Assembly: GCA_018818785.1 (NCBI GenBank)
Contig: JAHIRF010000002.1
Span: 135,874 to 199,873 of the forward strand
DNA from: Thermoplasmatota archaeon
Lineage (GTDB): Archaea > Thermoplasmatota > Thermoplasmata > UBA10834
Direction: 5' to 3'
Length of the DNA stretch: 64,000 bases
Both the position numbers and the translations under genes were made by a program. The notes under the pieces are model-generated. The model did not search any database, had not been told where the DNA came from, and saw only the letters and a program-made list of their open reading frames with translations. This document shows positions 1 to 56,280 of this stretch, one piece after another (the first letter of the stretch is position 1; each line of letters opens with the position of its first letter).

Positions 1-3000
1 AAATGACCTTATCAGATCAGATCTCGTCGACAGGGGTGCCATGTTCCATGAAGGGCAGATCACGCACAGATACGGGCACTGCTGGCGATGTAAGAGGCCG
101 ATCATATACAGGATAACCGAGCAATGGTTCCTGAAGGTCACCGACATAAAGGCGCAGCTCGAAGCTGCCAACGACCAGATCAAGTGGTATCCCGACTGGG
201 CCGGCTCATCCAGGGAGAAGGACTGGATAGCCAATGCAAGGGACTGGTGCATCAGCAGGCAGAGGTACTGGGGGACACCCGTTCCCATCTGGAGATGCGC
301 ATGCGGCAACGTCAAGGTGATCTCATCGATTGAGGAGCTCAAGTCTGGCCGAGGATACGTGGACGGTATGGATGTGCATCGCCCATGGATCGATAATATC
401 ACATTCGATTGCGAGAAGTGCGGGCAGACGATGACCAGGACACCAGATGTTCTGGATGTCTGGTTCGACGCGGGAGTCTGTTCTTGGGCGTCCTTGGGAT
501 ACCCAGCGAGCAAGGATGACTTCGATAAATGGTGGCCAAGCGAGTGGGTCACCGAGGCTCACGATCAGACCCGAGGCTGGTTCTACTCTCAGCTAGTGAC
601 GGGAGTTGTTGCATTCGGCAGATCACCATACAATTCCGTTCTCATGCACGGATGGGCACTTACGCCCCAGGGAGAGGCCATGTCTAAGAGCGAAGGCACG
701 GCAATAGACCCAATAGGTGCGGTGAACACACTTGGCGCCGACGCGCTGAGACTATATCTCCTGAAGGCCAACGCCCCTTGGGAGGACATTCTCTTCCAGA
801 CTGAGGGCGTCAAGGCGGCTAACAGGATCATAAACATCTTCTGGAACGTCTACAAATTCGCAGTCCTGTACATGTCGATAGATAAATTCGACGAATCACA
901 ATGGCGGACCCAATCTCTCAGAGAGACCTTCAGGCCAGAGGATCGATGGATGCTCTCCCGCATCGAGACGATGAAGAGGGACTTCACGCAGGCAATGGAG
1001 ATATATGAGGTGCATCGAGCGGCGAGGATACTCGAGGACTTCATAGTGACGGATCTCTCGCGATGGTACGTCAAGGTAGTGAGGGATAGACTCTGGAAGG
1101 AGGGGGATGACAGGGACAAGACCGCTGCGTTCAAAGTGCTGCACGAGGCGCTGTCAACATCTGCGACCATGCTCGCTCCAATAGCACCTCATGTTTGCGA
1201 AGCAATCTACACCAACCTCAACTCAAGGCCTGAGAGCGTGCACATGGTTCAATGGCCGACTCATGATCCAAGTTGGATCGATGAGGGTCTGGAAGAGGGC
1301 ATGGACCTCGTAAGGGAGATATCCGAGGTGATCGCCCGCATGCGCCAGGAGGCGAATGTGAACCTCCGATGGCCCTTGAAGCGCATCATCATCAAACCGC
1401 AGAATGATGATGTCGCTGATGCGCTGATACAGCTCAAGAATGTCATCCTGTCCCAGAACAACATCAAGGATATGCATGTCGTGCCGGTAGGTGAGGAATG
1501 GGACGAGATGGTCCTGAGCGTGGTTCCGAACCCCAACGCCATAGGGAAGGTCTATCGCCAGTGGTCGAGCAAGATCGCGGTTCTTCTCAAGAACAGGCCT
1601 GCGAAGTCGATCAAGGCCGGTATCGACAAGGGCGAGTACTCACTCGGTATCGAGGGCCAACTCGTCAAGATCCTTCCGAACATGGTGTCCTTCACTTCGA
1701 CGCTCCCACCAGATGTGGTCAGTGACGAGTTCTCCAAGGGTCTGTTCTATGTCGACCTCGAGGAGACCCCCGCGCTCGAAGCGGAGGGATTCGCGAGAGA
1801 GACCATCAGACGGATACAGCAGATGAGAAAGGACATGGGCCTCAACGTAGAGGAATTCATAAAGATAGAGATAGAGTGTTCGCGCAAGATCGAGAACGCC
1901 ATAGAGACCTGGAAGGACCATATCTCAAGGGAGACCAGGGCCAAACGGCTCGAGGTCGCCAATTCTCCAAGAGGGGAATACATCGTCGAGTGGAATGTCT
2001 CGAATGAACAACTCCTGATAGGCATAACCTCACTTAAGATGAAGAAGGCATTGGACGAGCTCGGAGCGATTCCTGGCATGACCGCCGAAAAGGCGCTCAA
2101 GATATTCGACCATGGCTACACTACGGTTGACGCCCTCAAGAACGCATCGATCGAAGACATAGCCTCGATCGATGGCATCACGAACGTCGATGGTAAGAAG
2201 ATCCATGACCATCTAAATGGGGTCGTCCACACAGAACCAGCTCCTGCAGCACCGCCAGCCCCGAGTGTCGCGCAGGCTACTACGGACGTAGCAGCTGCCC
2301 CTCCCCCGAACGAATTCATCGAGCGATTGAAAGCCGTTCCCGGCATGACAGCATCGCTGGCGGACGGATTGTACAGGGCAGGTTTCGTGTCCGAGGAATC
2401 CATCAGGAACGCTTCTGTGGACGATATGATGAAGGTGGACGGAATAAGTCTCGATGTCGCAACCCAGTTATTGGACGCATCCATGAACCCTTCCGTTTCT
2501 GACGGAGCGGCTCAAGTAGCACCCAAGAAGATAGAGCCAGGCGTGAGCGATCTCGAAAGGTCGTTTTCATACCTTGTCGAAGAGGACAGGCCCGAGACAT
2601 CGTACAGTCTGTTCGTAAGCGCGCTCAATAAGGGCATGAAGGGATATTGTGTCACGAGGAATTATCCCGCGAAGATACGCACCAAATTCGACCTCAAGGA
2701 TACGCCATTGGTTTGGCTCTCTAATGTAGGTCGCGAGAACGCCATCAGACCGAAGGACCTCGAGAAGCTGAGCGTCTCCCTGGAACAATTCCTCTCGCAA
2801 CCGGGCGGGGGAATCGTGCTCCTGGATGGTCTGGAGTATCTGATCACCAATAACAATTTCATAACCGTGTTGAGGCTGATACAATCCCTGAGGGATCAGG
2901 TCGCGATCAATCAATCCATACTCCTCATGGCTGTGAACAAGTCGACACTTGAGAGCCATCAGCTCAATCTGCTGGAGCGAGAGGTGGACTACACCATAAC

Positions 3001-3007
3001 TGGATGA
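1..3007 (+). CDS. ileS: Isoleucyl-tRNA synthetase, C-terminal ~2/3 (5' end lies outside the window). An in-frame C-terminal extension of about 330 aa follows: 2-4 helix-hairpin-helix motifs, a Pro/Ala-rich linker, then a DUF835-like domain (~2550..3007).
   Basis: Class I aaRS motifs are present (HCWRCKRPII, PDVLDVWFDAG, KMSKS as 'AMSKSEG'), followed by an anticodon-binding region. After about aa 665 come HhH-like repeats ('GAIPGMTAEKALKIFDHGYTTVDALKNASIEDIASIDGI', 'VPGMTASLADGLYRAGF...VDGISLDVATQLL'). The final ~150 aa aligns with two other proteins in this window (the 14495..15208 and 51324..53171 products). No stop codon interrupts the frame. Confidence 0.8.
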   Translation, partial: NDLIRSDLVDRGAMFHEGQITHRYGHCWRCKRPIIYRITEQWFLKVTDIKAQLEAANDQIKWYPDWAGSSREKDWIANARDWCISRQRYWGTPVPIWRCACGNVKVISSIEELKSGRGYVDGMDVHRPWIDNITFDCEKCGQTMTRTPDVLDVWFDAGVCSWASLGYPASKDDFDKWWPSEWVTEAHDQTRGWFYSQLVTGVVAFGRSPYNSVLMHGWALTPQGEAMSKSEGTAIDPIGAVNTLGADALRLYLLKANAPWEDILFQTEGVKAANRIINIFWNVYKFAVLYMSIDKFDESQWRTQSLRETFRPEDRWMLSRIETMKRDFTQAMEIYEVHRAARILEDFIVTDLSRWYVKVVRDRLWKEGDDRDKTAAFKVLHEALSTSATMLAPIAPHVCEAIYTNLNSRPESVHMVQWPTHDPSWIDEGLEEGMDLVREISEVIARMRQEANVNLRWPLKRIIIKPQNDDVADALIQLKNVILSQNNIKDMHVVPVGEEWDEMVLSVVPNPNAIGKVYRQWSSKIAVLLKNRPAKSIKAGIDKGEYSLGIEGQLVKILPNMVSFTSTLPPDVVSDEFSKGLFYVDLEETPALEAEGFARETIRRIQQMRKDMGLNVEEFIKIEIECSRKIENAIETWKDHISRETRAKRLEVANSPRGEYIVEWNVSNEQLLIGITSLKMKKALDELGAIPGMTAEKALKIFDHGYTTVDALKNASIEDIASIDGITNVDGKKIHDHLNGVVHTEPAPAAPPAPSVAQATTDVAAAPPPNEFIERLKAVPGMTASLADGLYRAGFVSEESIRNASVDDMMKVDGISLDVATQLLDASMNPSVSDGAAQVAPKKIEPGVSDLERSFSYLVEEDRPETSYSLFVSALNKGMKGYCVTRNYPAKIRTKFDLKDTPLVWLSNVGRENAIRPKDLEKLSVSLEQFLSQPGGGIVLLDGLEYLITNNNFITVLRLIQSLRDQVAINQSILLMAVNKSTLESHQLNLLEREVDYTITG

Positions 3008-8578: not shown

Positions 8579-10783
8579 TTAAGATATCACGAACAGTCCG
8601 ACGAACACGAGCGTCACTGTCGAGAGCAGTTTGACGAGCACGTGTATCGAAGGTCCTGCAGTGTCCTTCAACGGGTCACCGACGGTGTCTCCTACGACCG
8701 CAGCTGCGTGCGTGGGTGATCCCTTTCCACCAAAGTTCCCAGACTCGACGTATTTCTTGCCGTTGTCCCATGCCCCGCCGCCGTTGTTGAACATGTTGGC
8801 GACCATGATTCCAGTGATCGTGCCGACCATGAGCAGACCGCCGACGGCCTGTGGCGCATCGTAGCCGGCCTGGTTCATCAGGACTCCGAAGAGCACTGGC
8901 ACGAGGACGGGCAACAATGCGGGAAGGATCATAGCTTTCAATGCGCCCTTTGTAGCGATATCGACACAGGCCGCATAGTCTGGCTTTGCGGTTCTCTCCA
9001 TTATTCCAGGTATCTCCTTGAACTGCCTGCGGACTTCAGTGATCATCTTCCCTGCGGTCTTTCCGACGGCCCTGATGGCCAATGAAGCGAACAGGAAGAC
9101 AAGCATGGCTCCGAGCAACGCACCCGCGAAGACATCCGGTTGAGCGAGATCCACCTTGAATGCATCTGCCAGGCTGCCTCCGGTCTTGTCGGCAACACGC
9201 TCGAAATAGGCGCCGAACAATAGGAATGCTGCAAGTGCTGCACTTGCCATCGCGTATCCCTTGGTCAAGGCCTTTGTGGTGTTCCCACAGGCATCGAGCC
9301 TGTCGGTCCTCCGTCTGATATCCTCTGGCTGCCTTGACATCTCGACTATTCCACCAGCGTTATCTGTGATGGGTCCGAAAGTGTCCGTTGCAAGTATGAA
9401 TGCACATGTGGCGAGCATACCCATGGTAGCCACTGCGGTGCCGTAGAACCCGTAGACCAGGTGTATAGTTGCGTCATCCACAGCCTCTGCAGGAGCTGCT
9501 GCCTGTCCGAGTGCGAATGCACCCAAGAGAGCAATGATTATTGCGATAACCGGGAGAGCCGTGCTCTCCATCGCGATGGACAAACCGGTTATGATGTTCG
9601 TCGCCGGTCCAGTCTTCGAAGCCTCTGCTATCTCCTTTACAGGTCTCCAGCTTCCAGATGTGTAGTATTGAGTTATGTATACGATTACTATGCTCAGGCC
9701 GATTCCGATGAGTCCTGCAGCGAAGAAGTACAGGTAATTGTCTCCCAACATGTACTTGGTAGATATGTAGAAGAACACCGCTGCGAGCAGGCACGTCACA
9801 TAAAGGCCCTTGTTAATCCCGCTCATCGGGTCCTTGTTTTCATCCTTTATCTTGACGAGCAATACACCAGCCATCGATGCGAATATTCCGAACGATCTGG
9901 CGACCAGAGGGAAGAATATCCACGCGAGGGCGGCCTCTGGAGTCCAGCCAAGAGTCGTTATAGAGAATCCGTATAGTGTCAGACCGAGAACCATCGCACC
10001 GATATTCTCTGCGGCCGTCGACTCGAACAGGTCGGCGCCTCTGCCTGCGCAGTCACCGACATTGTCACCGACGAGGTCAGCTATGACTGCAGGGTTCCTC
10101 GGGTCGTCCTCTGGAATTCCGGCCTCAATCTTTCCGACGAGGTCCGCGCCAACATCAGCAGCTTTTGTGTATATCCCGCCACCAAGCTGAGCGAACAGCG
10201 CAGCGAAACTGGCCCCGAACGCGAACCCAATGGCTGCGTTGAGGGAGTCTCTCACTTCGAGCCCGACGCCAGCAGAGAAAACATAATAGATGCCGGCTAC
10301 TCCAATCAAGCTGAGCGAAACGACCGCCATGCCAGAGACAGCTCCGCCGCGGAACGATGTGACAAGAGCCTCGTTCAGAGATCTCCTTGCAGCAGCTGCC
10401 GTCCTTATGTTGGACCGGACGCTGACATACATTCCAATGTAGCCAGATAGTGCAGACGCGCCCGCACCGACCATGAATGATGCGCCTACCCAATAATAGG
10501 GTTCGATGAAGATTCCAATGAGGACTGCCAGTATCACGCTGATTATGATGATGGTCGTGTACTGGCGCTTCATATAAGCCATCGCACCCTGCTTGATAGC
10601 GTCACTGATCTCCTGCATCTCGGGTGTCCCAAGATCCTTTCTGAAAACATACCAGGTCAGATAGCCTGCGAAGGCAAGACCGACCAATCCCGCAATCGGA
10701 ATCACAAGTGTGATGTCTACCATCCTAAACTCTCCGTTACCGATTGCCGCAGGATTAGGCTCCCAATATAAATTATTAACCAA
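8579..10783 (-). CDS. hppA: Membrane-bound proton/sodium-translocating pyrophosphatase (V-type H+-PPase)
   Basis: 734 aa, multi-TM, with conserved 'GGIYTKAADVGADLVGKIE', 'DNVGDNVGDCAGRGADLFES' and 'GDTVGDPLKDTAGPS' motifs. Confidence 0.9.
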   Translation of the reverse strand: MVNNLYWEPNPAAIGNGEFRMVDITLVIPIAGLVGLAFAGYLTWYVFRKDLGTPEMQEISDAIKQGAMAYMKRQYTTIIIISVILAVLIGIFIEPYYWVGASFMVGAGASALSGYIGMYVSVRSNIRTAAAARRSLNEALVTSFRGGAVSGMAVVSLSLIGVAGIYYVFSAGVGLEVRDSLNAAIGFAFGASFAALFAQLGGGIYTKAADVGADLVGKIEAGIPEDDPRNPAVIADLVGDNVGDCAGRGADLFESTAAENIGAMVLGLTLYGFSITTLGWTPEAALAWIFFPLVARSFGIFASMAGVLLVKIKDENKDPMSGINKGLYVTCLLAAVFFYISTKYMLGDNYLYFFAAGLIGIGLSIVIVYITQYYTSGSWRPVKEIAEASKTGPATNIITGLSIAMESTALPVIAIIIALLGAFALGQAAAPAEAVDDATIHLVYGFYGTAVATMGMLATCAFILATDTFGPITDNAGGIVEMSRQPEDIRRRTDRLDACGNTTKALTKGYAMASAALAAFLLFGAYFERVADKTGGSLADAFKVDLAQPDVFAGALLGAMLVFLFASLAIRAVGKTAGKMITEVRRQFKEIPGIMERTAKPDYAACVDIATKGALKAMILPALLPVLVPVLFGVLMNQAGYDAPQAVGGLLMVGTITGIMVANMFNNGGGAWDNGKKYVESGNFGGKGSPTHAAAVVGDTVGDPLKDTAGPSIHVLVKLLSTVTLVFVGLFVIS

Positions 10784-10959: not shown

Positions 10960-11190
10960 CTATCTCTCGATGAGCGTCTCGACGTATCTCACGAAGCCAA
11001 GCTTCTGGATCTTATCTGCGATCTGGCCGACCTTCTCGAGACCCTGCACGTCCAAGAATGCGACGTAGTCATAGTGTCCGAACACTGTGAATCCGTCTTT
11101 GACTCCAGGGATCTTCGTTATCTTCCCCGCGTCCGTGTATGTCTTAGGCTCCAACATTACGAGTACAACTGCCTTAACCATTTGAATCAC
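10960..11190 (-). CDS. Stand-alone RAM (Lrp/AsnC C-terminal ligand-binding) domain protein
   Basis: 76 aa, 'MIQMVKAVVLVMLE...IPGVKDGFTVFGHYDYVAFLDV' beta-alpha-beta-beta-alpha-beta pattern of the AsnC_trans_reg domain. Confidence 0.55.
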   Translation of the reverse strand: MIQMVKAVVLVMLEPKTYTDAGKITKIPGVKDGFTVFGHYDYVAFLDVQGLEKVGQIADKIQKLGFVRYVETLIER

Positions 11191-11191
11191 C

Positions 11192-11422
11192 TCAGATCTC
11201 CGGGAATCCGATCAGGGTTTCGACTATCTCGACGCCCTCGGAGCCGTATATGGTCATCCCTATCTTCGCGATCTTTGCCAGATCCATGTCCTCGGTTTCG
11301 ATAGCTACATCCCATCTTCCATGCACTGGGAAAGCTTCGACTACGCCTGGCAGTTTCTTAGCAATATCCACGATCTTCTTGGTCTTCAGCAACTTGCAGC
11401 AGACTAATATGCATGCCTTTAC
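11192..11422 (-). CDS. Second stand-alone RAM-domain protein (paralog of the gene just downstream). The long ORF extends to 11521, but the start is probably the Met at 11422.
   Basis: 'MVKACILVCCKLLKTKKIVDIAKKLPGVVEAFPVHGRWDVAIETED' is collinear with the adjacent 76-aa protein. Confidence 0.5.
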   Translation of the reverse strand, partial: VKACILVCCKLLKTKKIVDIAKKLPGVVEAFPVHGRWDVAIETEDMDLAKIAKIGMTIYGSEGVEIVETLIGFPEI

Positions 11423-11615
11423 CATGGAATCCCTTCCGTTGAGGCAGCAAACGGAGTCTATATGTATATAATCTATCCGAAACCACGCATGGAATGGATT
11501 TATGGAGTCTTGGGGAACCACGTTACGCCATTATCATCATTCGTGACGATTCGAACAAAAAGCATTATGACGCAACACAATGATTTTACACATGAGACGC
11601 AATGGCGTCGTATAG

Positions 11616-12317
11616 GTGATTCATATGGGTCCTCCGGAGGAAAGCGTCCAGAAGAAGCGTGATTTTCAGAAAACCAAAGATGATGATCTAGATGCATTCC
11701 TTACGAAGAGGGAACCTTCCAAGAACGCTAAGCCAGTATCATCTGAACTATCGACTAAGAAGCCCCAATCATCGGAATCGGATGAGGATCAACCACCTAA
11801 GGAGACTTCCGATGAGGAGCACGATAATCAGATCAAAGCCGCTAGGACTGGCAGGGCTGCCGCCGAAGCATATCACGATGTCGCTGTCCTGAGGAAGAAA
11901 TCGCATGAACACAGTCACAAGGCGTCCAAGTTCTTCCACAAATACAAGAGCAACGAGGCCAGACGCCAGAAATGCTCCTCCAGGGCCGTCGCATACCGCG
12001 AGAAGGCGTCTGAGCGGAGGGAGAAGGCAAAGGAGCACAGAGCGGCTACCAAAGAATATGATCTGGAGCTGAGGGGCGCTGCGCAGGGCAAGGGGGATCT
12101 GAGCCCTGAGGCACTGAGGAACAAGATCGCTGTCCTTGAGCGCAAGACGGCGAAGCAGGAGTCAAAAGCGAGAAAATACGAATCACTGGCTGCTGATCAG
12201 ACTGAGAAGGCCGCCAAATACAGGACGAGAGCGGCCAAGTTCCTCGAGAAGAACAAGTCGCACGAGAGCGAGTCCCGGATGTATGGGAAGAGGGCAGACA
12301 ACCTCGAGAAGGTCTAG
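11616..12317 (+). CDS. Highly charged, low-complexity, coiled-coil-like protein, function unknown
   Basis: 233 aa rich in K/E/A/R. Repeated 'KAxKYRxRAAKF'-like heptads and an acidic S/D/E N-terminal region. Confidence 0.4.
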   Translation: MIHMGPPEESVQKKRDFQKTKDDDLDAFLTKREPSKNAKPVSSELSTKKPQSSESDEDQPPKETSDEEHDNQIKAARTGRAAAEAYHDVAVLRKKSHEHSHKASKFFHKYKSNEARRQKCSSRAVAYREKASERREKAKEHRAATKEYDLELRGAAQGKGDLSPEALRNKIAVLERKTAKQESKARKYESLAADQTEKAAKYRTRAAKFLEKNKSHESESRMYGKRADNLEKV

Positions 12318-12327
12318 AATCTCGATA

Positions 12328-12747
12328 TCATCGTGTCTTCCGACTCATCTCCTGGCCTTGGGCAGACCAGTGTAGGAAGGATGGTTCATCTTCCAGATCG
12401 ACCGTTTCTGAGCTAGATTCGCCGTTGGCTTTGACGAATACGCGCAGTCTCCCGTCCTGAAGGACCACCTCGGCGGATTCGACCGTCGAACGGTACATAG
12501 CCACGGACTTGCCACCGATGGACACTGCCTTGTCCTCTTCTCGGATCATGCCCGCCTGTTTGAGCAGACGTATCCGTCTGTAGCAGGCCGCGATGGGTAT
12601 CCCTAGCGCTTCGCTGATCTCCGTGGCGTTCATGGCCTGCACCTCCGTCATGGAGAGTATCTCCGATGAATGTTCGTCGAGCATGAGTTTGAAGGAATCC
12701 ATGGCATTCATCGAGTCACGACCTATATCCTCGACAGACCTGACCAT
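12328..12747 (-). CDS. Winged-helix (ArsR/TrmB-like) transcriptional regulator. The 18522..18893 product is a paralog.
   Basis: 'EISEALGIPIAACYRRIRLLKQAGMI' HTH. Shares the motif 'IPIAACYRRI' with the 18522..18893 product. Last gene of the KaiC-like operon. Confidence 0.55.
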   Translation of the reverse strand: MVRSVEDIGRDSMNAMDSFKLMLDEHSSEILSMTEVQAMNATEISEALGIPIAACYRRIRLLKQAGMIREEDKAVSIGGKSVAMYRSTVESAEVVLQDGRLRVFVKANGESSSETVDLEDEPSFLHWSAQGQEMSRKTR

Positions 12748-13670
12748 TCCTGGTCGAAGTTGCTGCCTCCAATACCTTGTAGATGGACAGATGAGTGTTC
12801 GAAACCCGGCTTGTTGGCGGCCCTTTGGAGATAATTCACATCACCAGTCTCTATATCGAGATGAAGGAACACGACATTGTCCACTTTGAGGACTGGCAGT
12901 ATCTTGCCCGCATCCATGCCTTCGGGGTTCTCCACCATCTGGCCACACGCGGAACACTTGCCTGAATCGAGAGGTCCATGCTGTCCACAGAACGGACAGT
13001 CTACCTCGTCGAGTGGGTTGTTGTCGAACTCCATGTCTGTGAATATTCCTACGATACCGGTGTCTCCCAGCTCCAACCGGGTGCCGCATATCGGACACCT
13101 GTCAGTGTTCAATTCAACGACAGTACCACAATGTGTGCACTCGAAAACGAAGTCGGGACCACCTTTGTCGTCCTGCAGATAATGCAGGATGCCCAACTCG
13201 GCATCGAAGTGTATCAGGGGATTGCCGTCCTTCGTGACGAAATCCTCGGGTTGGAATTCTTTGAGATTCTCAGCGCGCAGGAGTTCCTCCATCTCAGCCT
13301 CGTCTATTCCTTGTATGTACAATGCGCGGCACTTCGGACACCTCTCTGCGCCATCGGGCATCTGGGTGTTGCACTCGAAGCATTGGAATGTCTTCATGAC
13401 GGGTCTTGGAGGAGCGTTAGAAGATCTAGCGACAAACTGGTCTAGAACTTGAGCGGTGATCTGGATATCATCGCGTGTAATCTTGGGCGCCTTCAGGGCA
13501 TCAGCCATATGTTTCCTGCTCATAGGCTTCGCCTTGACAACCCGTCTTAGATGCCTCTTCTCTTCCTTGACAGTGATGAAGGTACCTTTCTTTCCTAATC
13601 TCCTGGCCTTCGCTGGGGCATTCGCATCCTCGTCGACCCCTTCATCAGTCTGTTGGCGTTTCGCTTTCAT
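12723..13670 (-). CDS. Four-zinc-ribbon protein, function unknown
   Basis: 315 aa with four CxxC...CxxC pairs (CFEC..CPKC; CTHC..CPIC; CPFC..CSAC). Basic N-terminus. Confidence 0.5.
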   Translation of the reverse strand: MKAKRQQTDEGVDEDANAPAKARRLGKKGTFITVKEEKRHLRRVVKAKPMSRKHMADALKAPKITRDDIQITAQVLDQFVARSSNAPPRPVMKTFQCFECNTQMPDGAERCPKCRALYIQGIDEAEMEELLRAENLKEFQPEDFVTKDGNPLIHFDAELGILHYLQDDKGGPDFVFECTHCGTVVELNTDRCPICGTRLELGDTGIVGIFTDMEFDNNPLDEVDCPFCGQHGPLDSGKCSACGQMVENPEGMDAGKILPVLKVDNVVFLHLDIETGDVNYLQRAANKPGFEHSSVHLQGIGGSNFDQEWSGLSRI

Positions 13671-13805
13671 ATCCCAGATCCTCTCGTCAGATGTTTCGAA
13701 TCGTTTCTCTCAGCTCAACGATTGGATAGGATTACTTATACCGGTGTCGACACGGTAATCAGCGCTGATAACACCAGACCCTGCCAGTCTTCAGGCGTCG
13801 GAGGC

Positions 13806-14498
13806 TCAGAATCGCGCCTTCAGCACTATCACGCCGTCTTTGCGTGTTATATCAACCGATTGCTTCCCAGTCAGATGGTTGGTGCCTCTCATCTTGAGCA
13901 CCTCTATGTATTTGCGCCTGGCATCTCCTTCGTCGGAGAGCATCAGAAGGATGACCCCATCTACCGCGTACGATATCTCCGCGGGGTACAGTTCACCCGG
14001 ATGTACTTCACCTGTCAGAATGGTGACGGCCTGCCAGTTCTTCAATCGGGTCGCGAGATCGAACGCGAATACCCTGTAGTCATCTTTCATCATCGTACCC
14101 ACCACCGTGATTGGATCGATGACGATCCTGTTGGGCATCACCTCGGCGATCTTCTTGTCTATGATGTCGAGTATCTCTTCACCACTCCTCTTTCGGAGTT
14201 CGAGGCCGAGGTCGAAGTAGACTATCTCCTTGCCGTAGAACTCACGCTTGGCGAACTCGAACTGAGTGGCATATCTCAGCATCCACTGCGCAGGCTCGCT
14301 GAGTGTGCTTATGTAGAGGCACTGCTCGCCATTCTCAGCACCTGAGAACATGAATTTCTGGGCGAACGTGGTCTTGCCAGATCCCGCACCGCCAGCTACG
14401 AGGACAACCGATGGATAGGGGAAGCCTCCTTCGATCATATCGTCCAGGCCAGGAATGCCACTGCTCAGTCTCGGGAAGCCATTCTCGATCATATTCAA
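13806..14498 (-). CDS. KaiC-like / RecA-superfamily ATPase (single KaiC domain)
   Basis: Walker A 'VLVAGGAGSGKTTFAQKF', KaiC-like 'CLYISTLSEP', Walker B 'RIVIDPITVV'. 230 aa. Confidence 0.8.
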   Translation of the reverse strand: MNMIENGFPRLSSGIPGLDDMIEGGFPYPSVVLVAGGAGSGKTTFAQKFMFSGAENGEQCLYISTLSEPAQWMLRYATQFEFAKREFYGKEIVYFDLGLELRKRSGEEILDIIDKKIAEVMPNRIVIDPITVVGTMMKDDYRVFAFDLATRLKNWQAVTILTGEVHPGELYPAEISYAVDGVILLMLSDEGDARRKYIEVLKMRGTNHLTGKQSVDITRKDGVIVLKARF

Positions 14499-15208
14499 AT
14501 CACTCCTTTCGAAATATCGCTCTTCGCCAGTCCTCCGGGACTGCCCTGGAAGACATGTCTTATCTGCATATCAGGTGACAGTTCGATCGTCTTCGTCGCG
14601 ATTTCAGACACAAACTCGAAGAGGACCGGATGAACCTCCTTGTCCATCGCCAAGACGGTGATCACTCTCTGGGAGGCTCTGTTCCTCAGCACCGCGAGAT
14701 ACTTCGTGAAGAATGTCTCCACGCTCGCCATCGTGTTATAGGTCAGCAGGGTGGATACATTGTCCATCACGACGAACTCGACCATTGAGAACTCTGATGA
14801 GATATCAGGGTTCGAGCCATTCGAACCTGCTATGAACTCCGGTAGAACCTCGATGTGAAACGGTCCTTTCTGGAATTCAGCAGCGACCGCACCGCCTTTC
14901 GTATCTGACGATTGGACCGATATGGCATCAACGAAAGACAGATTGGTCTGATCGATGCCATGGAGCTGGAGGAGATGTGAGACATATTGGTGGGGTCTAT
15001 CGATCGTTATCATGATGCCTTTCTTCTGTTTTCGCTCCAGGAGCGCTTTCAGAAGAACCAAGTTCAATCGGACCAGATTCGTATACTTCACCGATATGAG
15101 ATACAGCCCGCTCTCTCCTTCAGTCTGAATCTCTGAGCTGATGATCTTGACTAGCTGGAGATCCTTCTCATTCACTCGTCGCACACCCACTACACGACTA
15201 TCACTCAA
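14495..15208 (-). CDS. Stand-alone DUF835-like domain protein. The gene overlaps the KaiC-like ATPase start by 4 nt.
   Basis: 'GIMITIDRPHQYVSHLL...NLSFVDAIS' and 'VEFVVMDNVSTLLTYNTMASVETFFTKYLAVLRNRASQRVITVLAMDKEV' align collinearly with the C-terminal domains of the IleRS extension and of the 51324..53171 product. No Walker A motif. Confidence 0.5.
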   Translation of the reverse strand: MSDSRVVGVRRVNEKDLQLVKIISSEIQTEGESGLYLISVKYTNLVRLNLVLLKALLERKQKKGIMITIDRPHQYVSHLLQLHGIDQTNLSFVDAISVQSSDTKGGAVAAEFQKGPFHIEVLPEFIAGSNGSNPDISSEFSMVEFVVMDNVSTLLTYNTMASVETFFTKYLAVLRNRASQRVITVLAMDKEVHPVLFEFVSEIATKTIELSPDMQIRHVFQGSPGGLAKSDISKGVI

Positions 15209-15417
15209 TAATGCGTTATTTCATATAAGCAGATTCCCGAGATTATCCAGTGAGATATGCATTCGAACGACCATTGATCCTCAATCTAAACGGCCCGACT
15301 CATTCCCAGCAGACATTACCAAGCGTTTGCCATACATCGAAAAAGATATAAACGGGACCTATCATTGTCCTCACTGCGTCCACAGTCTAATGGGTGTTCT
15401 GACGGCGTTGGTACAGT

Positions 15418-16290
15418 ATGACGGAAGAGCTTGTTGCAGAACTCGAAGAAAAGCGGGCACGGCACAATGCCGATGCCGAACGGCACAAGAGGCTCAGAGA
15501 TGAGCTTAATGAGAAGACTAGGGAATGGGCCGACCGAAGAGATGAATTGAATGCACAGGTTCGAAAGCTCATAGAAGAGGCCAACGCCAGACGCGAGACG
15601 AGGGACAAGCTCAACGCCGAGGTCAGAGAGGTCAAAGCCAAGAGAGACGATTGGAACAGGAAGTTCAACGACCAGAGCGATAAGGTCATCACACTCAAGC
15701 GGGAGAACATGCCCAAGAGCGGCCAATCAATCCGAAAGTACAAGGCTGAGCTCAGGACGCTCGAGAAGAGACACATGACCTCGGTCCTCACCACCGAGAA
15801 GGAGAGAGCCCTGGTCGAAGAGATATCATCGCTCAGCAACAAGATACGCTCCCTCGAGAAAGAGATGGAGCAGTTCACCGAGGTCAAGACTGCCGAGCAC
15901 GACGCAAGAGAGGCGAAGGATCAGGCTGAGACATTCCACAGGCAGGTCTCCGAATACGCCGAGAAGGCGCAGATGGAGCACGATGCCATGCTGAAGCTCT
16001 ACGAGGAAGCGGACGCCATCAGAAAGGAGGCCGACGATGCCCAAGAGAAGTTCATCGATGCCAAACTAACCGCTGACGAGGAGCACCGTGAGCATATAGA
16101 GCACATCCGACAGGTTCACGATTTCGACAAGATCATAACTGGCATCCGTGACAAGAGTCGCAAGTCCCGCAGAGAGAATGACGAGAGTTCTGTCAAGAAA
16201 GAGGCCGAGGAGATCTACGATAAGTTCCGGAGCGGAGAGAAGCTCAGCACCGAGGACATCATGGTGCTTCAGAAATCCGGTTACATGTGA
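15418..16290 (+). CDS. Archaeal coiled-coil protein (COG1340-like)
   Basis: 290 aa, almost entirely heptad-repeat E/K/R-rich sequence, upstream of SRP54. Confidence 0.45.
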   Translation: MTEELVAELEEKRARHNADAERHKRLRDELNEKTREWADRRDELNAQVRKLIEEANARRETRDKLNAEVREVKAKRDDWNRKFNDQSDKVITLKRENMPKSGQSIRKYKAELRTLEKRHMTSVLTTEKERALVEEISSLSNKIRSLEKEMEQFTEVKTAEHDAREAKDQAETFHRQVSEYAEKAQMEHDAMLKLYEEADAIRKEADDAQEKFIDAKLTADEEHREHIEHIRQVHDFDKIITGIRDKSRKSRRENDESSVKKEAEEIYDKFRSGEKLSTEDIMVLQKSGYM

Positions 16291-16591: not shown

Positions 16592-17932
16592 ATGGTGCTG
16601 GAAAACCTCGGTGGCGCTCTGAAAGACGCAATCAAAAAGATCGCCAACGCATCACATGTTGACCAGAAGCTTGTCAAGGAAGTCGTGAAGGATATTCAGC
16701 GCGCGCTCCTTCAGGCAGATATCAATGTCAAACTAGTCATCTCGATGACTAAGGAGCTCGAGCAACGGGCGCTCACGGAGAAGCCCCCTGCAGGCATGAG
16801 CTCGCGGGAACATGTCATAAAGATAGTGTATGAGGAGCTAGTGAAGCTCATCGGAAAGGGAGGGGAGATACCTGCCAAACCCCAGCGGATACTTATGGTG
16901 GGGCTCTATGGTCAGGGAAAGACTACCACATCGGGCAAATTGGCTAAGGACCTCCACAAGAGAGGCATGAAGGTCGGCCTTGTCGCTGCCGATGTCCACC
17001 GACCTGCTGCCTTTGATCAGCTCACCCAGATTGGCGCCAAGATAAACGTGCCAGTGTTCGGCGACCCCAAGGAGAAGAGCGCAGTCAAGATAGCCAAGCG
17101 GGCAATGAAAGAGTTCGAGGGCTACGATGTCATCATATTCGACACATCAGGCAGACACGCCCTGGAGGCCGACCTCATCGATGAGATAGAATCGGTCGCC
17201 AAGATAGTCGACGCGGAGCAGAAGATACTCGTCCTTGACGCGCAGACTGGGCAGCAGGCAGGGCCTCAAGCCAAGGCGTTCCATGATGCAGTCCATGTCA
17301 CTGGCGTCATAATAACCAAGTTGGATGGCACTGCCAAGGGCGGAGGGGCGCTCAGCGCAGTCGCGGAGACCGGCGCCCCGATCTGTTATGTGGGAGTGGG
17401 CGAGCATCTTGAGGATATCGAGCGGTTCGACCCCGATCGTTTCATAAGCAGGCTTCTGGGGATGGGGGATATCAAGTCCCTCATAGAGGTCGCGAGCGAG
17501 GTCATGGATGAGGAGAAGGCCGAAGAGGCTGCGCGTAAGATGATGTCCGGCAAGTTCTCCTTGAAAGAGATGTACGATCAGATGGAGATGCTCCAGGGTA
17601 TGGGGCCTCTGAAGAAGATCGCGTCCATGCTTCCGGGTATGTCTGACAAGCTACAAGAGCAGGACATGGAGGCGACCCAGGAGCGCTTGGTAAGGTTCAG
17701 GGTCATAATGGATTCGATGACCGAGGAGGAGCTTGAGAACCCCAAGCTCATCAAGTCGTCCAGGATCATAAGGGTCGCGCGCGGGAGCGGCACGACCACA
17801 AAAGAAGTCAAGGAGCTGCTGAAGCAGTATGACATGTCCAAGAAAGCCATGAAGGGTTTCATGGGCAACCGGAAGATGCGGAGGCAGCTCATGAAGCAGT
17901 TCAAGGGCGCTGACTTCTCCAAGGAGGCATGA
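16592..17932 (+). CDS. srp54: Signal recognition particle protein SRP54
   Basis: N domain, G domain ('GLYGQGKTTTSGKLA', 'DTSGR', 'TKLDG') and a Met-rich C-terminal M domain. Confidence 0.9.
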   Translation: MVLENLGGALKDAIKKIANASHVDQKLVKEVVKDIQRALLQADINVKLVISMTKELEQRALTEKPPAGMSSREHVIKIVYEELVKLIGKGGEIPAKPQRILMVGLYGQGKTTTSGKLAKDLHKRGMKVGLVAADVHRPAAFDQLTQIGAKINVPVFGDPKEKSAVKIAKRAMKEFEGYDVIIFDTSGRHALEADLIDEIESVAKIVDAEQKILVLDAQTGQQAGPQAKAFHDAVHVTGVIITKLDGTAKGGGALSAVAETGAPICYVGVGEHLEDIERFDPDRFISRLLGMGDIKSLIEVASEVMDEEKAEEAARKMMSGKFSLKEMYDQMEMLQGMGPLKKIASMLPGMSDKLQEQDMEATQERLVRFRVIMDSMTEEELENPKLIKSSRIIRVARGSGTTTKEVKELLKQYDMSKKAMKGFMGNRKMRRQLMKQFKGADFSKEA

Positions 17933-18525
17933 CAATGAGACGATTCGTCGTATTGGGCCATAGGGCCATCACGTCTGCTGATTTCAAACTCGATGACCTC
18001 TGCGGGTCAACCGGTCGGTTGGATATCCTCCTCAGATGCGTCAATTCGGCGTTCTTCCTATCACATTCGATCCGAAGGGATGTGGAGATCACGCTCATGC
18101 TCCTCGGAGAGCCCAACCCACCAAAGACCATACGGATCGACGGCTCGGAGGTCAAATACCTCAATCCTGACGAGAGGAGCACCGCCGCCCTGATAAGGAA
18201 CGCACTCATGCAGAAGGGCGAGGGCGAGAGAAGGTGCTCTCCGGGCATATATGTCTCTGAGCGGAGCTACCAGGATGTCCTGTCGAACATATCGAAGGAG
18301 TCCCAGATGTACTATCTCAAAGAGGATGGGGCGGACATCAGGTCTTGCGACTTCGTCCAGGACAACACATTCGTCATGGGGGACGATCAGGACCTCACTC
18401 CTGAGGAGGAGGAGATACTGATGAACTACGAGCCGAAGAAGATATCATTGGGACCTGTCAGCTACCACGCGGACCATTGCGTGACACTAGTCAATAACGA
18501 GCTCGACCGAAAGAACATCGCCTAA
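17929..18525 (+). CDS. trmY: tRNA (pseudouridine54-N1)-methyltransferase TrmY (DUF358, SPOUT)
   Basis: 'MRRFVVLGHRA...GRLDILLRCVNSAFFLSHSIRRDVEITLMLLGEPNPPKTIRIDGSEVKYLNPDERSTAALI' matches the TrmY pattern. Confidence 0.72.
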   Translation: MTMRRFVVLGHRAITSADFKLDDLCGSTGRLDILLRCVNSAFFLSHSIRRDVEITLMLLGEPNPPKTIRIDGSEVKYLNPDERSTAALIRNALMQKGEGERRCSPGIYVSERSYQDVLSNISKESQMYYLKEDGADIRSCDFVQDNTFVMGDDQDLTPEEEEILMNYEPKKISLGPVSYHADHCVTLVNNELDRKNIA

Positions 18526-18893
18526 GAATATTTGGTCCCGAGACGCGTGACCCTATTCCCTGCGTCTGGCTCATCCGAATCGCCGTTCTCAGGGTGAACA
18601 TCGAACTTCAGCGAGAACCTGCCTTTTGAGAATTTGATCGCAGCCGACTTGAGACGGCACTTGTACATCCTCACTCTACGACCTTTATAGACCTCCTTGT
18701 CCTGGTCTATGGTAATGAGCCCTGCATCTTCCAGCTCATGTATACGCCTATAGCAGGCCGCGATGGGTATACGGCATAGCTTGCTCAGCTTCTGGGCGGA
18801 CATGGGGGATGTATAGGTGTACGCAAGGATCTTCTGGGAATAATTATCCGCCAGAAGCTTGGACACCTCCTTGGACTTCTCTTCGGGGGTCAT
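18522..18893 (-). CDS. Winged-helix transcriptional regulator, paralog of the 12328..12747 product
   Basis: 'LSKLCRIPIAACYRRIHELEDAGLI' shares the IPIAACYRRI motif with the KaiC-operon regulator. Confidence 0.5.
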   Translation of the reverse strand: MTPEEKSKEVSKLLADNYSQKILAYTYTSPMSAQKLSKLCRIPIAACYRRIHELEDAGLITIDQDKEVYKGRRVRMYKCRLKSAAIKFSKGRFSLKFDVHPENGDSDEPDAGNRVTRLGTKYS

Positions 18894-19048
18894 CTAGCTC
18901 CATTGAATGAGTAATTGCAGCATTTAAGCTGGTTTTCGTCAGGTTATCAGTGGTGATAAGGAACCTGGCAATATCCGGAATGTCCGATTCATACGCGCGA
19001 AACAATTATCTCTCCCGGGTATATGTCCTATCATCGGGAGAAAGTCCC

Positions 19049-20386: not shown

Positions 20387-20430
20387 CGAAAGTTAGAAAT
20401 ATCTCTCGTCAGCTCCCCAGCTAGCATACG

Positions 20431-20502
20431 GGCCCTTAGATCAGTGGAAGATCGCTTCCTTCGCAAGGAAGAGGTCGTGGGTTCAAATCCCACAGGGTCC
20501 AT
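20431..20502 (+). tRNA. tRNA-Ala (anticodon CGC)
   Basis: 72-nt cloverleaf. Acceptor GGGCCCT/AGGGTCC with G3:U70, anticodon loop TTCGCAA, T-arm GTGGG-TTCAAAT-CCCAC. No encoded CCA. Confidence 0.85.
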
Positions 20503-20538: not shown

Positions 20539-21696
20539 TTGATTTCTCCCCTGTCCCAACAAACTCCTTCATCTTCTTTCTCTTCCGAAGCCTCCCGGGA
20601 CCATGAAGATTATCGAATCTTTCAGTATGTCAACGACTTCGAGGAGGTCAGGCTCAAGCTAGTAAAGGGCAAATTAGACCTGAACCTGCCTGAGGACCGG
20701 GATCTATGCATAAAACTCTATCAGAAATGGGTCACAGACGACAATTACATGGTTCTGAGAAAAATCGACCCTCGTGGACCAATCGAGTATCAGGTATGCA
20801 AGGCTCGCAAGCGTGGAAACGATGTAGACGCATACAGGATCCATCGACAGCTTCGCATCATAAAGGACTCAATCGTCGAATATGCTCAAAGCAATCAACG
20901 CCTGAGGGCTACTAGGGCCGTCCATGTGACGGGCACGATTGACCCTAGATTGGTCGATAATGATCTCGAATACGCTTGGCAGTACCTTGGATACTGGTTC
21001 AATATGTTCCTGGCAAGCCTGAGAAAGCGATGTGTCAGAAACATCACGCTCAAGGAAGAGAAGGAAAAAGCCAAGGAACTCAAGATTCGAGTATATCGGT
21101 CCTGGGAGTCCCATGGATCGGGATGGCCCCATTTCCATGCTATTCTATGTTTTGAGGGATACTCCTGGACAATCTTCCAAGATTCAAAGTCGAGGTGGCG
21201 ACTCAATGACAAGGACACATTCCAAGATGCTTGGAGCTTCGGATGGATAGATGTAGTAGCCCTCACCCCTGGCACGACTAACAAGAATGTCGAGAAGGTC
21301 GTATCGTATGTCAGCAAGTATGTGGGCAAAGGGGCCACTGAGATGGATTATCGTCATGTGGAATCCTGGCCTCGAAAGAGACTCCTGACCGAATCGCTTT
21401 TATGGTACTTTGGCAAAAGGTCATATTCGATCAGTCGTGGGCTATTGGAGGGACATGACCACCCTAACGACTTGAAAAAACGTATAAGCACAATTCAAAC
21501 GAACATAGAAGGAGAATGCGTCCCAGAGCTTGAAATTGTGTGGGAATTCATTGGAATGGTGCGCGGAAAAGACACCGAATTGGATGGCTACACCTGGGTC
21601 AAGACGTATACGGATCCACCTGATTGGCTAGACCTATGCTGGAAACCTTGTCGTAGCTACGTGGGAACATGTTGGATGAATACTTGGGGGAGTTGA
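20539..21696 (+). CDS. rep: Rolling-circle replication initiator (HUH superfamily Rep)
   Basis: Motif 1-like 'AVHVTGTI', HUH motif 'WPHFHAILCF', Tyr motif 'VSYVSKYVGK'. First gene after the tRNA att site. Confidence 0.6.
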   Translation: MISPLSQQTPSSSFSSEASRDHEDYRIFQYVNDFEEVRLKLVKGKLDLNLPEDRDLCIKLYQKWVTDDNYMVLRKIDPRGPIEYQVCKARKRGNDVDAYRIHRQLRIIKDSIVEYAQSNQRLRATRAVHVTGTIDPRLVDNDLEYAWQYLGYWFNMFLASLRKRCVRNITLKEEKEKAKELKIRVYRSWESHGSGWPHFHAILCFEGYSWTIFQDSKSRWRLNDKDTFQDAWSFGWIDVVALTPGTTNKNVEKVVSYVSKYVGKGATEMDYRHVESWPRKRLLTESLLWYFGKRSYSISRGLLEGHDHPNDLKKRISTIQTNIEGECVPELEIVWEFIGMVRGKDTELDGYTWVKTYTDPPDWLDLCWKPCRSYVGTCWMNTWGS

Positions 21697-35103: not shown

Positions 35104-35295
35104 CCTATCCCACATAAATATCATCAAATGGCGGATAATAGCTTCGCAAATAGAGAGCCGTAATACTATGGATTACCCAACGATGTTGAATTCGACTTGA
35201 CCAAAATATAGAAAATATGCGACACTCATGATGGTCTGAGGGATTTCATCACCTCATTGGGCCTCAATGAATGATCAATCTATGACGGGAATCGT

Positions 35296-56213: not shown

Positions 56214-56280
56214 CTTGGTCAGCCAGCAATATGACGGAAGGGTTGATACCAATAAAAGGTTTCTTGAGAAGCCGATATCC

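Follow-up and report, generated by a model that had tools for sequence, protein, structure and literature searches.

Known KaiC-type systems

The principal signalling hubs specific to archaea are predicted to be KaiC-like ATPases and, to our knowledge, almost none of these proteins has a defined partner, target or cis-element. KaiC-like ATPases and inactivated KaiC homologs were presented as signalling hubs by Makarova, Galperin and Koonin (2017, mBio), as relayed in PMC5847659 and PMC10983859, and the DUF835 domain is labelled "iKaiC" in PMC5847659. The locus analysed here, which belongs to an uncultured member of the Thermoplasmata, resembles these archaeal hubs in that it combines a single-domain KaiC ATPase, a homolog devoid of ATPase motifs and a winged helix-turn-helix (wHTH) protein, and in that function is predicted there as it is here. 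It differs from what they describe in that the inactive homolog belongs to a family without a Pfam model, is strictly coupled to one KaiC, and shares a defined candidate operator. A sequence-only reading of the window (the whole stretch of DNA analysed, 64,000 nucleotides) knew of no characterized function for this combination; this holds true experimentally, but the KaiC/iKaiC hub concept had already been published (as relayed in PMC5847659).

Other described systems share parts of this design. Gene 2 of the locus has the fold and motifs of the cyanobacterial KaiC (CI-CII), and genes 1 and 2 together (as well as the protein P0211, see below) make up a two-KaiC-domain unit. Here, however, the unit is split into two polypeptides, one of them inactive. 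The S431/T432 phosphosites lack conservation, neither KaiA nor KaiB appears among the annotated neighbours, and nothing supports oscillation. The Elp4/5/6 and RAD51-paralog complexes (BCDX2, Rad55-Rad57) are heteromers that join degenerate subunits with related RecA-type ones, all of them RecA-fold paralogs, a likeness to genes 1-2 that is limited to fold and logic (identity 9-14%). The archaeal ArlH/FlaH and aRadC (Sso2452, RadC1/2) proteins have the fold and size of gene 2, which nevertheless scores far under the cutoffs of these families and has other neighbourhoods; ArlH is reported (bioRxiv 10.1101/2021.03.19.436134) to be an example of how such proteins regulate partners through nucleotide-dependent oligomerisation. 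As for the regulators of the TrmB/TrmBL1 and Csa3 types, gene 4 matches the TrmB wHTH and (in PADLOC) the Csa3/CARF3 wHTH, but it is a small stand-alone wHTH without a sugar-binding or CARF domain. The TATCA half-site found in the present promoters resembles the Thermococcales TGM (TATCAC-N5-GTGATA), from which it differs in half-site spacing.

From these comparisons and the evidence presented below, our best reading is that the locus encodes a KaiC/inactive-KaiC complex placed inside a small wHTH regulon (probability of about 0.6).

Gene content and gene junctions

The four open reading frames, all on the minus strand, lie where the sequence-only reading had placed them. Gene 1 (14495..15208) encodes an inactivated, P-loop-less KaiC-like protein (iKaiC) of RecA/KaiC fold, gene 2 (13806..14498) a single-domain KaiC-type ATPase, gene 3 (12723..13670) a protein with three Cys4 zinc ribbons, and gene 4 (12328..12747) a wHTH regulator (HTH_20 / ArsR-TrmB-like). 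Gene 1 itself probably starts further in, with an in-frame GTG (15190 or 15175) that lies downstream of where transcription is predicted to begin.

The tight packing claimed for the four genes holds for genes 1 and 2 but not for genes 2 and 3, which are separated by a 135-nt spacer (124-152 nt wherever gene 3 adjoins gene 2, L002 excepted). Even at the gene 1-gene 2 junction, GGAGTGATTTGAATATG, the announced ATGA overlap is absent: gene 2 begins either with a TTG start overlapping the TGA stop of gene 1, or with the ATG at 14492, which lies 2 nt past that stop and is preceded by GGAG. As to genes 3 and 4, their 25-nt overlap is probably an artefact of taking the first ATG. In orthologs gene 4 mostly starts 3-17 nt past the stop of gene 3, which points to ATG 12711 as the probable start in the window. 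In the locus L002, two Peptidase_C11 genes are inserted between the gene pairs.

Gene 2 is a single-domain KaiC-type ATPase

Gene 2 turned out to be the bona fide single-domain KaiC that had been announced, its residues 12-227 aligning to positions 2-228 of the 231 positions of the PF06745 profile (E=2.8e-42; 145.1 bits for a cutoff of 26.6). Its Walker A motif is GGAGSGKT, a Walker A is kept in 22/22 partner KaiCs, and across 15 orthologs the motifs GxAGxGKTTF, TLSEP, RxVIDPI and KMRGTxH do not vary. The catalytic motifs are intact: Walker A, Walker B and, as assigned from motif position, the catalytic glutamate and the Arg/Lys finger of KMRG. The match to TIGR03880 (KaiC_arch_3; E=8e-33) is below the cutoff of that model. 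A circadian KaiC (TIGR02655 / NF006799) was considered and rejected for gene 2, a single domain of 230 aa that scores 75-100 bits for cutoffs of 408-546. The positions equivalent to KaiC S431/T432 are (S/A/G)-Y and variable; since they are not conserved, timing based on autophosphorylation is unsupported.

Two further proposals would place genes 1-2 in an archaellum or pilus machine (ArlH-like) or in an anti-phage defence system. Scores are far under the family cutoffs and no arl or pil genes occur at any locus. PADLOC gave no system-level match for genes 1-3: genes 1 and 3 had no match, and genes 2 and 4 had just generic P-loop and wHTH matches. With the partner genes absent, both proposals are effectively excluded.

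Gene 1 belongs to a separate family of inactivated KaiC-like proteins

The absence of a Walker A motif from gene 1 was borne out across its family ([AG]x4GK[ST] in 0/135 members). The KMRG motif was not found in gene 1 either, while a Walker-B-like aspartate (D149) is retained; the gene has lost the nucleotide-binding and catalytic motifs, as expected of an iKaiC. Its predicted structure has a KaiC/RecA-type fold, which confirms the suspected RecA-like fold without a P-loop, with Elp6 and XRCC2 among the best structural matches (identity 9-14%). An alternative is that genes 1-2 are a RadA-paralog (aRadC-type) recombination-mediator pair comparable to Rad55-Rad57 or BCDX2, acting in DNA repair and not in signalling; we regard it as improbable.

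In searches against Pfam, gene 1 of the window matched only KaiC (E=0.026), with no DUF835 match at E<=0.1. Among 25 family members, 14 matched PF06745 (all below cutoff, best 6.9e-5) and nine matched DUF835 (all sub-threshold, best E=3.3e-3), and the gene 1 profile had no match among PDB sequences. The family numbers 635 clusters (50% identity) at E<=1e-3, the closest of which have no Pfam match. The nearest named families are DUF7504 (PF24336) and DUF7090 (PF23365). They include distant members of the gene 1 kin, at profile E values of 1e-10 to 1e-18, which also match KaiC weakly, whereas gene 1 and its relatives to E ~1e-25 give no above-threshold match to them, and KaiC is not adjacent to the remote members examined. 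The gene 1 family is a separate inactivated-KaiC family without a Pfam model.

The sequence-only reading had instead regarded gene 1 as a DUF835-like protein, aligning domain-for-domain with the C-terminal domains of IleRS and of a membrane protein, onto which this partner domain had supposedly been copied. DUF835 (PF05763) is real in both places, at E=7e-35 on the C-terminus of IleRS and at E=1.5e-11 on the membrane protein, and these two window copies match each other (3e-11), but the alignment with gene 1 fails. First, BLASTP of gene 1 against the two copies gave E=0.9 and 2.1. Second, a search of all window ORFs with the HMM of the gene 1 family, all filters disabled (--max), recovered neither DUF835 region at E<=10. 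Third, hhalign of gene 1 against DUF835 yielded a probability of 1.6-14%, over about 95 collinear columns. Fourth, in P0149 and P0156 the DUF835 and gene 1-like domains are distinct domains of one protein. On the terms for refutation set by the sequence-only reading itself, no significant alignment of the three regions to one another or to a shared HMM, gene 1 thus parts from the two DUF835 copies, and the copying claim falls.

The resemblance is not void, though. Both families are P-loop-less members of the KaiC superfamily, share a Walker-B-like hhhhD(G/N)h..L motif and are found as C-terminal parts of membrane proteins (for the gene 1-like domain, in P0170). The sub-threshold DUF835 matches of 9/25 members and the collinear hhalign columns also speak for a relationship, and the classification of DUF835 as an inactivated KaiC (PMC5847659) makes both families iKaiC-type. 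Against this, more gene 1 members match KaiC (14) than DUF835 (9), DUF835 spans about 135 aa for a gene 1 core of about 200 aa, and there is no significant sequence or profile similarity. Gene 1 is DUF835-like at the level of one broad superfamily and no closer, and its identification as DUF835 is already largely refuted.

Genes 1 and 2 are coupled

Gene 2 lies directly downstream of gene 1 in every locus with downstream DNA, with a gap of -4 to +4 nt in nearly all of them, and this adjacency persists in Methanomassiliicoccales-type MAGs, where gene 1 identity has fallen to about 31%. So strong a conservation rules out the chance juxtaposition that the sequence-only reading had allowed for between the KaiC-like gene and its P-loop-less partner. 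Judging from these junctions, the two genes are translationally coupled. They were also lost together in L028, where one deletion joined the N-terminus of gene 1 to the C-terminus of gene 2. In P0211 a KaiC domain is naturally joined to a gene 1-like domain in a single chain, and P0120 lies within a co-directional KaiC-X-TPR-gene 1-like cluster.

The wHTH proteins and a shared operator-like palindrome

Gene 4 is indeed a wHTH protein, with matches to HTH_20 (PF12840; 33.8 bits for a cutoff of 27), HTH_24 (24.9 bits for a cutoff of 21.9) and the TrmB wHTH (E=2.7e-5), and below-cutoff matches to the NCBIfam ArsR/SmtB and SdpR models. Its paralog, said to lie some 6 kb away, was found about 5.8 kb away (18522..18893, minus strand), with the same recognition helix, IPIAACYRRI. 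This helix is invariant and also occurs in the wHTH genes located immediately upstream of gene 1 in L022 and L025, an arrangement different from that of the window.

A TTATC-N6-GATAA palindrome occurs, with the same geometry, 14-15 nt upstream of a TATA box at gene 1, gene 3 and the wHTH paralog. The gene 1 site (15243..15258; ATATC-N6-GATAA, one mismatch) is followed 14 nt downstream by the TATA-like box TTATATGA (15221..15228, minus strand), the predicted promoter of genes 1-2. The spacer between genes 2 and 3 holds the site GTTATCA-GCGC-TGATTAC (13755..13772, minus strand) and, 15 nt downstream of it, the TATA-like box GGTATAAGT (13734..13742, minus strand); the ATG of gene 3 follows about 65 nt further downstream. 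At the paralog, the palindrome CTTATCACCACTGATAAC (18943..18960), in which the core TTATCA-N4-TGATAA is exact, stands 14 nt upstream of the CTTAAATG box of the paralog gene (18921..18928); it also faces a divergent adenylosuccinate lyase gene. The boxes of genes 1 and 3 presumably function as promoters, that of gene 3 being assigned from its conservation and position.

The palindrome is concentrated in these promoters: over 28 loci, 39/53 sites fall in the gene 1, gene 3 and paralog promoters, which make up 3.1% of the 351 kb covered (an enrichment of 87-fold; binomial p=2e-47), and so do three of the four sites in the window. It was found in 11/13 gene 3-gene 4 promoters and 13/16 paralog promoters. 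At gene 1 it occurs in 13 loci, 24-117 nt upstream of the gene, including distant loci without genes 3-4; these are just 13 of 28 gene 1 promoter segments, some of them incomplete or duplicated, and the site is degenerate in the closest relatives of the window (L003-L005). The alignment of gene 1 promoters has a conserved CTTATATG block at the TATA-like box.

Two gene pairs rather than one operon

The sequence-only reading had proposed a self-contained four-gene operon forming an ATPase-driven signalling module, whose DUF835-like subunit would be the same as the domain carried by IleRS and the membrane sensor. The four genes are co-oriented and close, and no oligo-T terminator was found in the gene 2-gene 3 spacer, so that read-through is possible. 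Yet the spacer holds a promoter-like block, and the genes are not inherited as a unit. Genes 3-4, with their own conserved promoter and operator-like site, survive the loss of genes 1-2 in three lineages (L018, L028, L036), and the spacer palindrome, conserved wherever gene 3 occurs, still precedes gene 3 together with the TATA box in L036 and L028, two loci from which genes 1-2 are missing or deleted. Conversely, seven loci (L001, L011, L019, L021-L024) carry genes 1-2 and lack genes 3-4, and no palindrome lies near the DUF835 genes of the window. These findings, added to the failure of the DUF835 comparisons, make the four-gene module quite unlikely; we lean instead towards two adjoining gene pairs with separate promoters, belonging to one small regulon. 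If the pairs depend on each other functionally, they do not do so obligately, since in three lineages genes 3-4 stand without genes 1-2.

It may then be asked whether the pairs are functionally unrelated and held together by the gene order of the clade. Each pair is found without the other, two Peptidase_C11 genes separate them in L002, and the block SRP54 <- DUF7121 <-, -> gene 1, 2, 3, 4, <- cc233 ... H+-PPase is syntenic throughout the clade. What argues against synteny alone is, first, that the same palindrome stands at the same distance from the TATA box at gene 1, gene 3 and the wHTH paralog and, second, that in L022 and L025 wHTH genes with the same helix are placed directly upstream of gene 1. 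The same partners in a different gene order argue for functional linkage, which leaves synteny alone an unlikely explanation. An association of the gene 1-gene 2 pair with the wHTH family is supported by the two gene arrangements and the common putative operator.

Proposed model

We propose that genes 1 and 2 form an obligate couple, gene 1 being a fast-evolving, P-loop-less KaiC-fold paralog. Translational coupling would ensure that both are made in fixed stoichiometry, and we infer that their products form a heteromeric KaiC-like assembly, whatever biological signal it may serve. Gene 2 would supply ATP binding and hydrolysis, and gene 1 would be a non-catalytic scaffold or adaptor that sets the oligomeric state or recruits partners, as Elp6 in Elp4/5/6, XRCC2/RAD51D in the RAD51-paralog complexes, or one ring of a two-ring KaiC. 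The coupling of translation, the joint deletion in L028 and the fusion P0211 support such a complex indirectly. Since gene 1 is devoid of the KMRG arginine finger, an alternating mixed ring would leave the active sites of gene 2 incomplete.

On the regulatory side, the IPIAACYRRI wHTH proteins would bind TTATC-N6-GATAA as dimers. With operator-like sites predicted in the promoter of gene 4's own unit and in that of the paralog, this binding may regulate the expression of the wHTH genes themselves while co-regulating the KaiC pair. The location of the palindrome upstream of BRE/TATA suggests activation. The binding factor could also be a protein other than gene 4 or its paralog.

A bolder proposal would be that in Thermoplasmatota the KaiC pair and the IPIAACYRRI wHTHs make up a KaiC-based switch or timer, a closed transcriptional feedback loop powered by ATP. 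In it, the wHTH would drive the pair via TTATC-N6-GATAA and the complex would feed back on the wHTH, while the same KaiC network would dock onto DUF835, an unrelated iKaiC domain carried by IleRS and by the membrane protein encoded beside LeuRS. If true, KaiC signalling would thereby be linked to branched-chain aminoacylation and to translation, but we regard this proposal as a long shot.

Returning to the KaiC/inactive-KaiC complex within a wHTH regulon, the locus provides a compact test case, with its obligate couple, a candidate regulator family with an invariant helix, and a precise candidate operator at three promoter classes, from uncultured Thermoplasmata to Methanomassiliicoccales. The lineages without one or the other gene pair are natural knock-outs, and the locus defines an iKaiC family so far unmodelled. 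Its value is incremental, as one more instance of a scheme already predicted for archaeal signalling and not a new principle. As the hosts are uncultured, tests would need a heterologous setting.

The zinc-ribbon protein

Gene 3 had been credited with four zinc ribbons; its 12 invariant cysteines make three Cys4 ribbons. AF2 modelled the protein poorly (pLDDT 54.6). Besides the ribbons, it has a basic motif at the N-terminus, two copies of an hhHFDxExGxhxYL element and, at the C-terminus, an invariant W..LSRI tail. Its family, of 35 clusters, is restricted to the clade.

Four genes and their products

Four minus-strand ORFs are present where the sequence-only reading had placed a four-gene operon, namely gene 1 (14495..15208), gene 2 (13806..14498), gene 3 (12723..13670) and gene 4 (12328..12747). 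Gene 1 has no above-threshold Pfam match, and its true start is probably, as in homologs, an in-frame GTG at 15190 or 15175. As had been proposed, gene 2 encodes a single-domain KaiC-type ATPase (PF06745, E=2.8e-42; Walker A GGAGSGKT). Its Walker A, Walker B, TLSEP glutamate and KMRG finger are invariant, and Ser/Thr is not conserved at the positions matching S431 and T432 of KaiC. Gene 3, which had been credited with four zinc ribbons, has 12 invariant cysteines and thus three Cys4 zinc ribbons. Its N-terminus carries a basic motif, the hhHFDxExGxhxYL element is duplicated, and the C-terminal W..LSRI tail is invariant. It belongs to a small family of 35 clusters, and its AF2 model, built with 28 sequences, is poor (pLDDT 54.6, pTM 0.24). 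Gene 4 encodes a winged-helix protein (HTH_20-type) with, as announced, a paralog at 18522..18893 (minus strand), the recognition helix of which (IPIAACYRRI) is identical.

The junctions differ from what had been described. The gene 1-gene 2 junction, supposedly an ATGA overlap, reads GGAGTGATTTGAATATG, i.e., a TTG/TGA overlap or an ATG lying 2 nt past the stop codon, this alternative ATG start of gene 2 having GGAG ahead of it. Genes 2 and 3, said to be nearly overlapping, are separated by a spacer of 135 nt. The apparent 25-nt overlap of genes 3 and 4 is probably the product of choosing the first ATG, because the start of gene 4 lies 3-17 nt past the gene 3 stop in most orthologs, a position corresponding here to the ATG at 12711. 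The DNA is archaeal; the nearest public contig by gene 1 belongs to a Thermoplasmata MAG (97% protein identity), and all relatives are MAGs of Thermoplasmata, Thermoplasmatota or Methanomassiliicoccales.

Gene 1 and DUF835 are separate inactivated KaiC-like families

DUF835 (PF05763) is present, as had been claimed, at the C-termini of the isoleucyl-tRNA synthetase (IleRS; E=7e-35) and of a membrane protein (E=1.5e-11), and these two copies match one another (E=3e-11). The claim extended the alignment to gene 1, but gene 1 aligns with neither copy (BLASTP E=0.9 and 2.1), so that the idea of a gene 1 domain copied onto both proteins is left without support. Run with filters off on every ORF of the window, the gene 1 family HMM retrieved gene 1 itself and neither DUF835 copy at E<=10. 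A weak match of this HMM at 35275..35973 (E=0.016) was dropped, as it has no Pfam support and lies inside a probable integrated element. Compared profile to profile, the gene 1 family reached a probability of 1.6-14% with a DUF835 alignment and of 2-6% with that of the partner KaiCs. Sub-threshold matches pointed to KaiC in 14 of 25 family members and to DUF835 in nine. The family profile gave no match at E<=10 among all PDB sequences. An exhaustive profile search (E<=1e-3) collected 635 clusters, of which those close to gene 1 have no Pfam family and the remote ones are DUF7504 or DUF7090 proteins with weak KaiC matches. Two of the proteins found, P0149 and P0156, contain a bona fide DUF835 domain plus, as a separate part of the chain, a domain of the gene 1 type. 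Because the alignments fail and both domains coexist in these two proteins, gene 1 and DUF835 are separate inactivated KaiC-like (iKaiC) families. Gene 1 is thus an inactivated KaiC-like protein with a family of its own, and DUF835, which carries the label 'iKaiC' in PMC5847659, is another such family. Gene 1 can be called DUF835-like in the loosest sense only.

The gene 1-like domain also occurs C-terminally in large AAA_16-DUF835-TPR proteins (P0149, 712 aa; P0156, 916 aa) and in a membrane-anchored protein (P0170, 386 aa). These DUF835-like architectures suggest analogous adaptor or output roles for both iKaiC families. Structural comparison placed PDB 3bs4 (PH0321) among the best matches to gene 1; this Pyrococcus protein of KaiC fold, as yet uncharacterised, was crystallised 'in complex with an unknown peptide'. 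The peptide is a possible hint of peptide binding by degenerate KaiC-fold proteins, which may be relevant to the invariant tail of gene 3.

Genes 1 and 2 form the conserved unit

A KaiC gene lies downstream of gene 1 in every fetched locus with DNA there, at -4 to +4 nt in nearly all of them, as the predicted KaiC-like adjacency required, and this also holds where gene 1 identity is only ~31-38%. Gene 1 evolves much faster than its partner, the mean pairwise identity being 0.39 for gene 1 versus 0.67 for gene 2. In the relative locus L028, a single deletion running from gene 1 into gene 2 joined what was left of the two, and both genes are gone together. The resulting ORF (111 aa; 9989..10324 of OY970070.1, a complete chromosome) fuses in frame the N-terminal ~50 residues of gene 1 to the C-terminal ~55 residues of KaiC; this chimera is a clean deletion scar, the pair having been lost in one event and genes 3-4 kept. 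In P0211, a P-loop KaiC domain and a domain of the gene 1 type are naturally joined in one chain. One remote gene 1 relative sits in a KaiC-X-TPR-gene 1-like cluster, and the even more remote DUF7504-type relatives P0229 and P0150 have no KaiC neighbour, so that obligate pairing does not extend beyond the gene 1 family itself. The gene 1-gene 2 pair is the conserved unit, and what is new here is an iKaiC family without Pfam model and with an obligate KaiC partner. The recurrent neighbours at distant loci (a YdjM-like membrane protein and 'fam5') were set aside as clade-specific and offering no functional lead, and PADLOC assigned no defence system.

Genes 3 and 4 are a separate unit

The single four-gene operon of the sequence-only reading does not hold, given a conserved spacer block and the absence of one pair or the other from some loci. 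First, the gene 2-gene 3 spacer is kept at 124-152 nt and contains a block, GTTATCA-N4-TGATTAC followed 15 nt on by GTATAAG, which is kept between genomes of only ~45-55% protein identity. Second, this block stands ahead of gene 3 in L028, where genes 1-2 are deleted, and in L036, though the syntenic slot holds no genes 1-2. Third, L018 has a frameshifted, truncated gene 1 and an insertion in place of gene 2, with genes 3-4 intact. Fourth, seven loci have room past gene 2 but no genes 3-4. In L002, two inserted peptidase genes lie between the two pairs. The 'operon' is, as a new result, two separable units.

A predicted operator is common to both units

The palindrome TTATC-N6-GATAA, with at most one mismatch, occurs at only four sites in the 64-kb window, three of which are at the promoters of gene 1, gene 3 and the gene 4 paralog. 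The gene 1 site (15243..15258, one mismatch) lies 14 nt upstream of the CTTATATG box, and the paralog site (18943..18960) lies 14 nt upstream of the CTTAAATG box; the gene 3 site is at 13755..13772. The fourth site (40609..40624), inside a long coding region, was taken as chance, and the window has no palindrome near its DUF835-carrying genes. Of the 53 sites in 28 loci (351 kb), 39 are located within the gene 1, gene 3 or paralog promoter windows, which make up 3.1% of the sequence (87-fold enrichment, binomial p=2e-47). The gene 1 palindrome is found in 13 loci, among them L011, L022-L024 and L026, all without genes 3-4. The IPIAACYRRI helix is invariant in gene 4, its paralog and the wHTH genes that immediately precede gene 1 in L022 and L025. 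The site enrichment and the invariant recognition helix support a regulon in which the wHTH proteins would bind the palindrome; both the binding and the sign of regulation are inferred. A site just upstream of BRE/TATA is in the position typical of archaeal activators. This defined operator, predicted from sequence and common to both units, is new.

Perfect TTATCA-N4-TGATAA sites also occur in L025 (4694), flanked by a further KaiC-like P-loop gene and the divergent gene of a secreted protein (893 aa); in L022 (6213), ahead of a secreted protein (960 aa); and upstream of adenylosuccinate lyase in both L002 (1227) and the window, where the 18943..18960 site is common to this gene and the wHTH paralog. 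Since perfect palindromes precede these further genes, the regulon may be larger, taking in purB and other KaiC-like genes.

Proposed mechanism

The translational coupling of genes 1 and 2, their joint loss, their natural fusion and the likeness of gene 1 to Elp6, XRCC2 and RAD51D, the non-catalytic subunits of heteromeric RecA-fold complexes, suggest that the two proteins form a hetero-oligomer. In such a complex, gene 2 would be the ATPase and gene 1 a scaffold or adaptor. A strictly alternating ring would cripple the gene 2 active sites, because gene 1 has no KMRG finger; a stacked or capping arrangement, comparable to the two rings of KaiC, would be at least as likely. In combining a KaiC-like ATPase with an inactivated homolog of KaiC and a wHTH protein, the locus follows an archaeal signalling proposal (Makarova, Galperin, Koonin 2017, as cited in PMC5847659 and PMC10983859). 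ArlH and CirA are experimental precedents. A rival, less likely functional context for genes 1-2 is that of the RadA paralogs known as aRadC.

DUF835 and branched-chain aminoacyl-tRNA synthetases

The IleRS-HhH-DUF835 gene (41..3007, plus strand; DUF835 part ~2594..2983) is continuous in the window, and the fusion is real at the ORF level. Its C-terminal extension of ~325 aa comprises an HhH, a Pro/Ala linker, a second HhH and then DUF835, an inactivated KaiC domain. The fusion recurs, with an added zinc ribbon, as one uninterrupted ORF of 1439 aa in L030 (1410..5729), a Methanomassiliicoccales MAG, and is split by frameshifts in L029; public protein sets hold only 100-260-aa 'DUF835 domain-containing' fragments. 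The FEN1 - IleRS(DUF835) - AcnX/NUDIX synteny is conserved, and in the papers searched, one of which mentions DUF835, we found no account of the fusion. It is probably more unusual than anything else near the finding, though independent of genes 1-4. The other DUF835 copy is C-terminal in a membrane protein with C1/RING-like zinc fingers (51324..53171, minus strand), directly downstream of the co-oriented leucyl-tRNA synthetase gene (53331..56438, minus strand). Both copies in the window are thus physically linked to the gene of a branched-chain aminoacyl-tRNA synthetase, one fused and one adjacent.

Neighbouring genes and an integrated element

Divergent from gene 1 is a 290-aa DUF7121 coiled-coil protein (15418..16290, plus strand; Pfam DUF7121 E=1e-42), always adjoining SRP54 (16592..17932, plus strand). 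These two were rejected as parts of the module, as DUF7121 stays beside SRP54 without genes 1-2 in L036. The gene 1-DUF7121 intergenic region has a second strongly conserved block on the DUF7121 side, CAACGCCnTCAGAACA...GGACAAT...TTTATAT. On the other flank, convergent with gene 4, a conserved 233-aa Lys/Glu-rich coiled-coil protein without Pfam family (11616..12317, plus strand) is syntenic across every close relative, and two small stand-alone Lrp/AsnC ligand-binding-domain proteins are encoded at 10960..11190 and 11192..11521 (minus strand). Immediately past tRNA-Ala (20430..20501), the G+C content falls from ~0.54 to 0.48-0.50, and the stretch opens with an ORF (20539..21696) that gives a match to rolling-circle replication proteins (REP_ORF2-G2P, E=1.4e-6); from this drop and this match, the region of about 20.5-38 kb is probably a plasmid or virus-like element integrated at tRNA-Ala.
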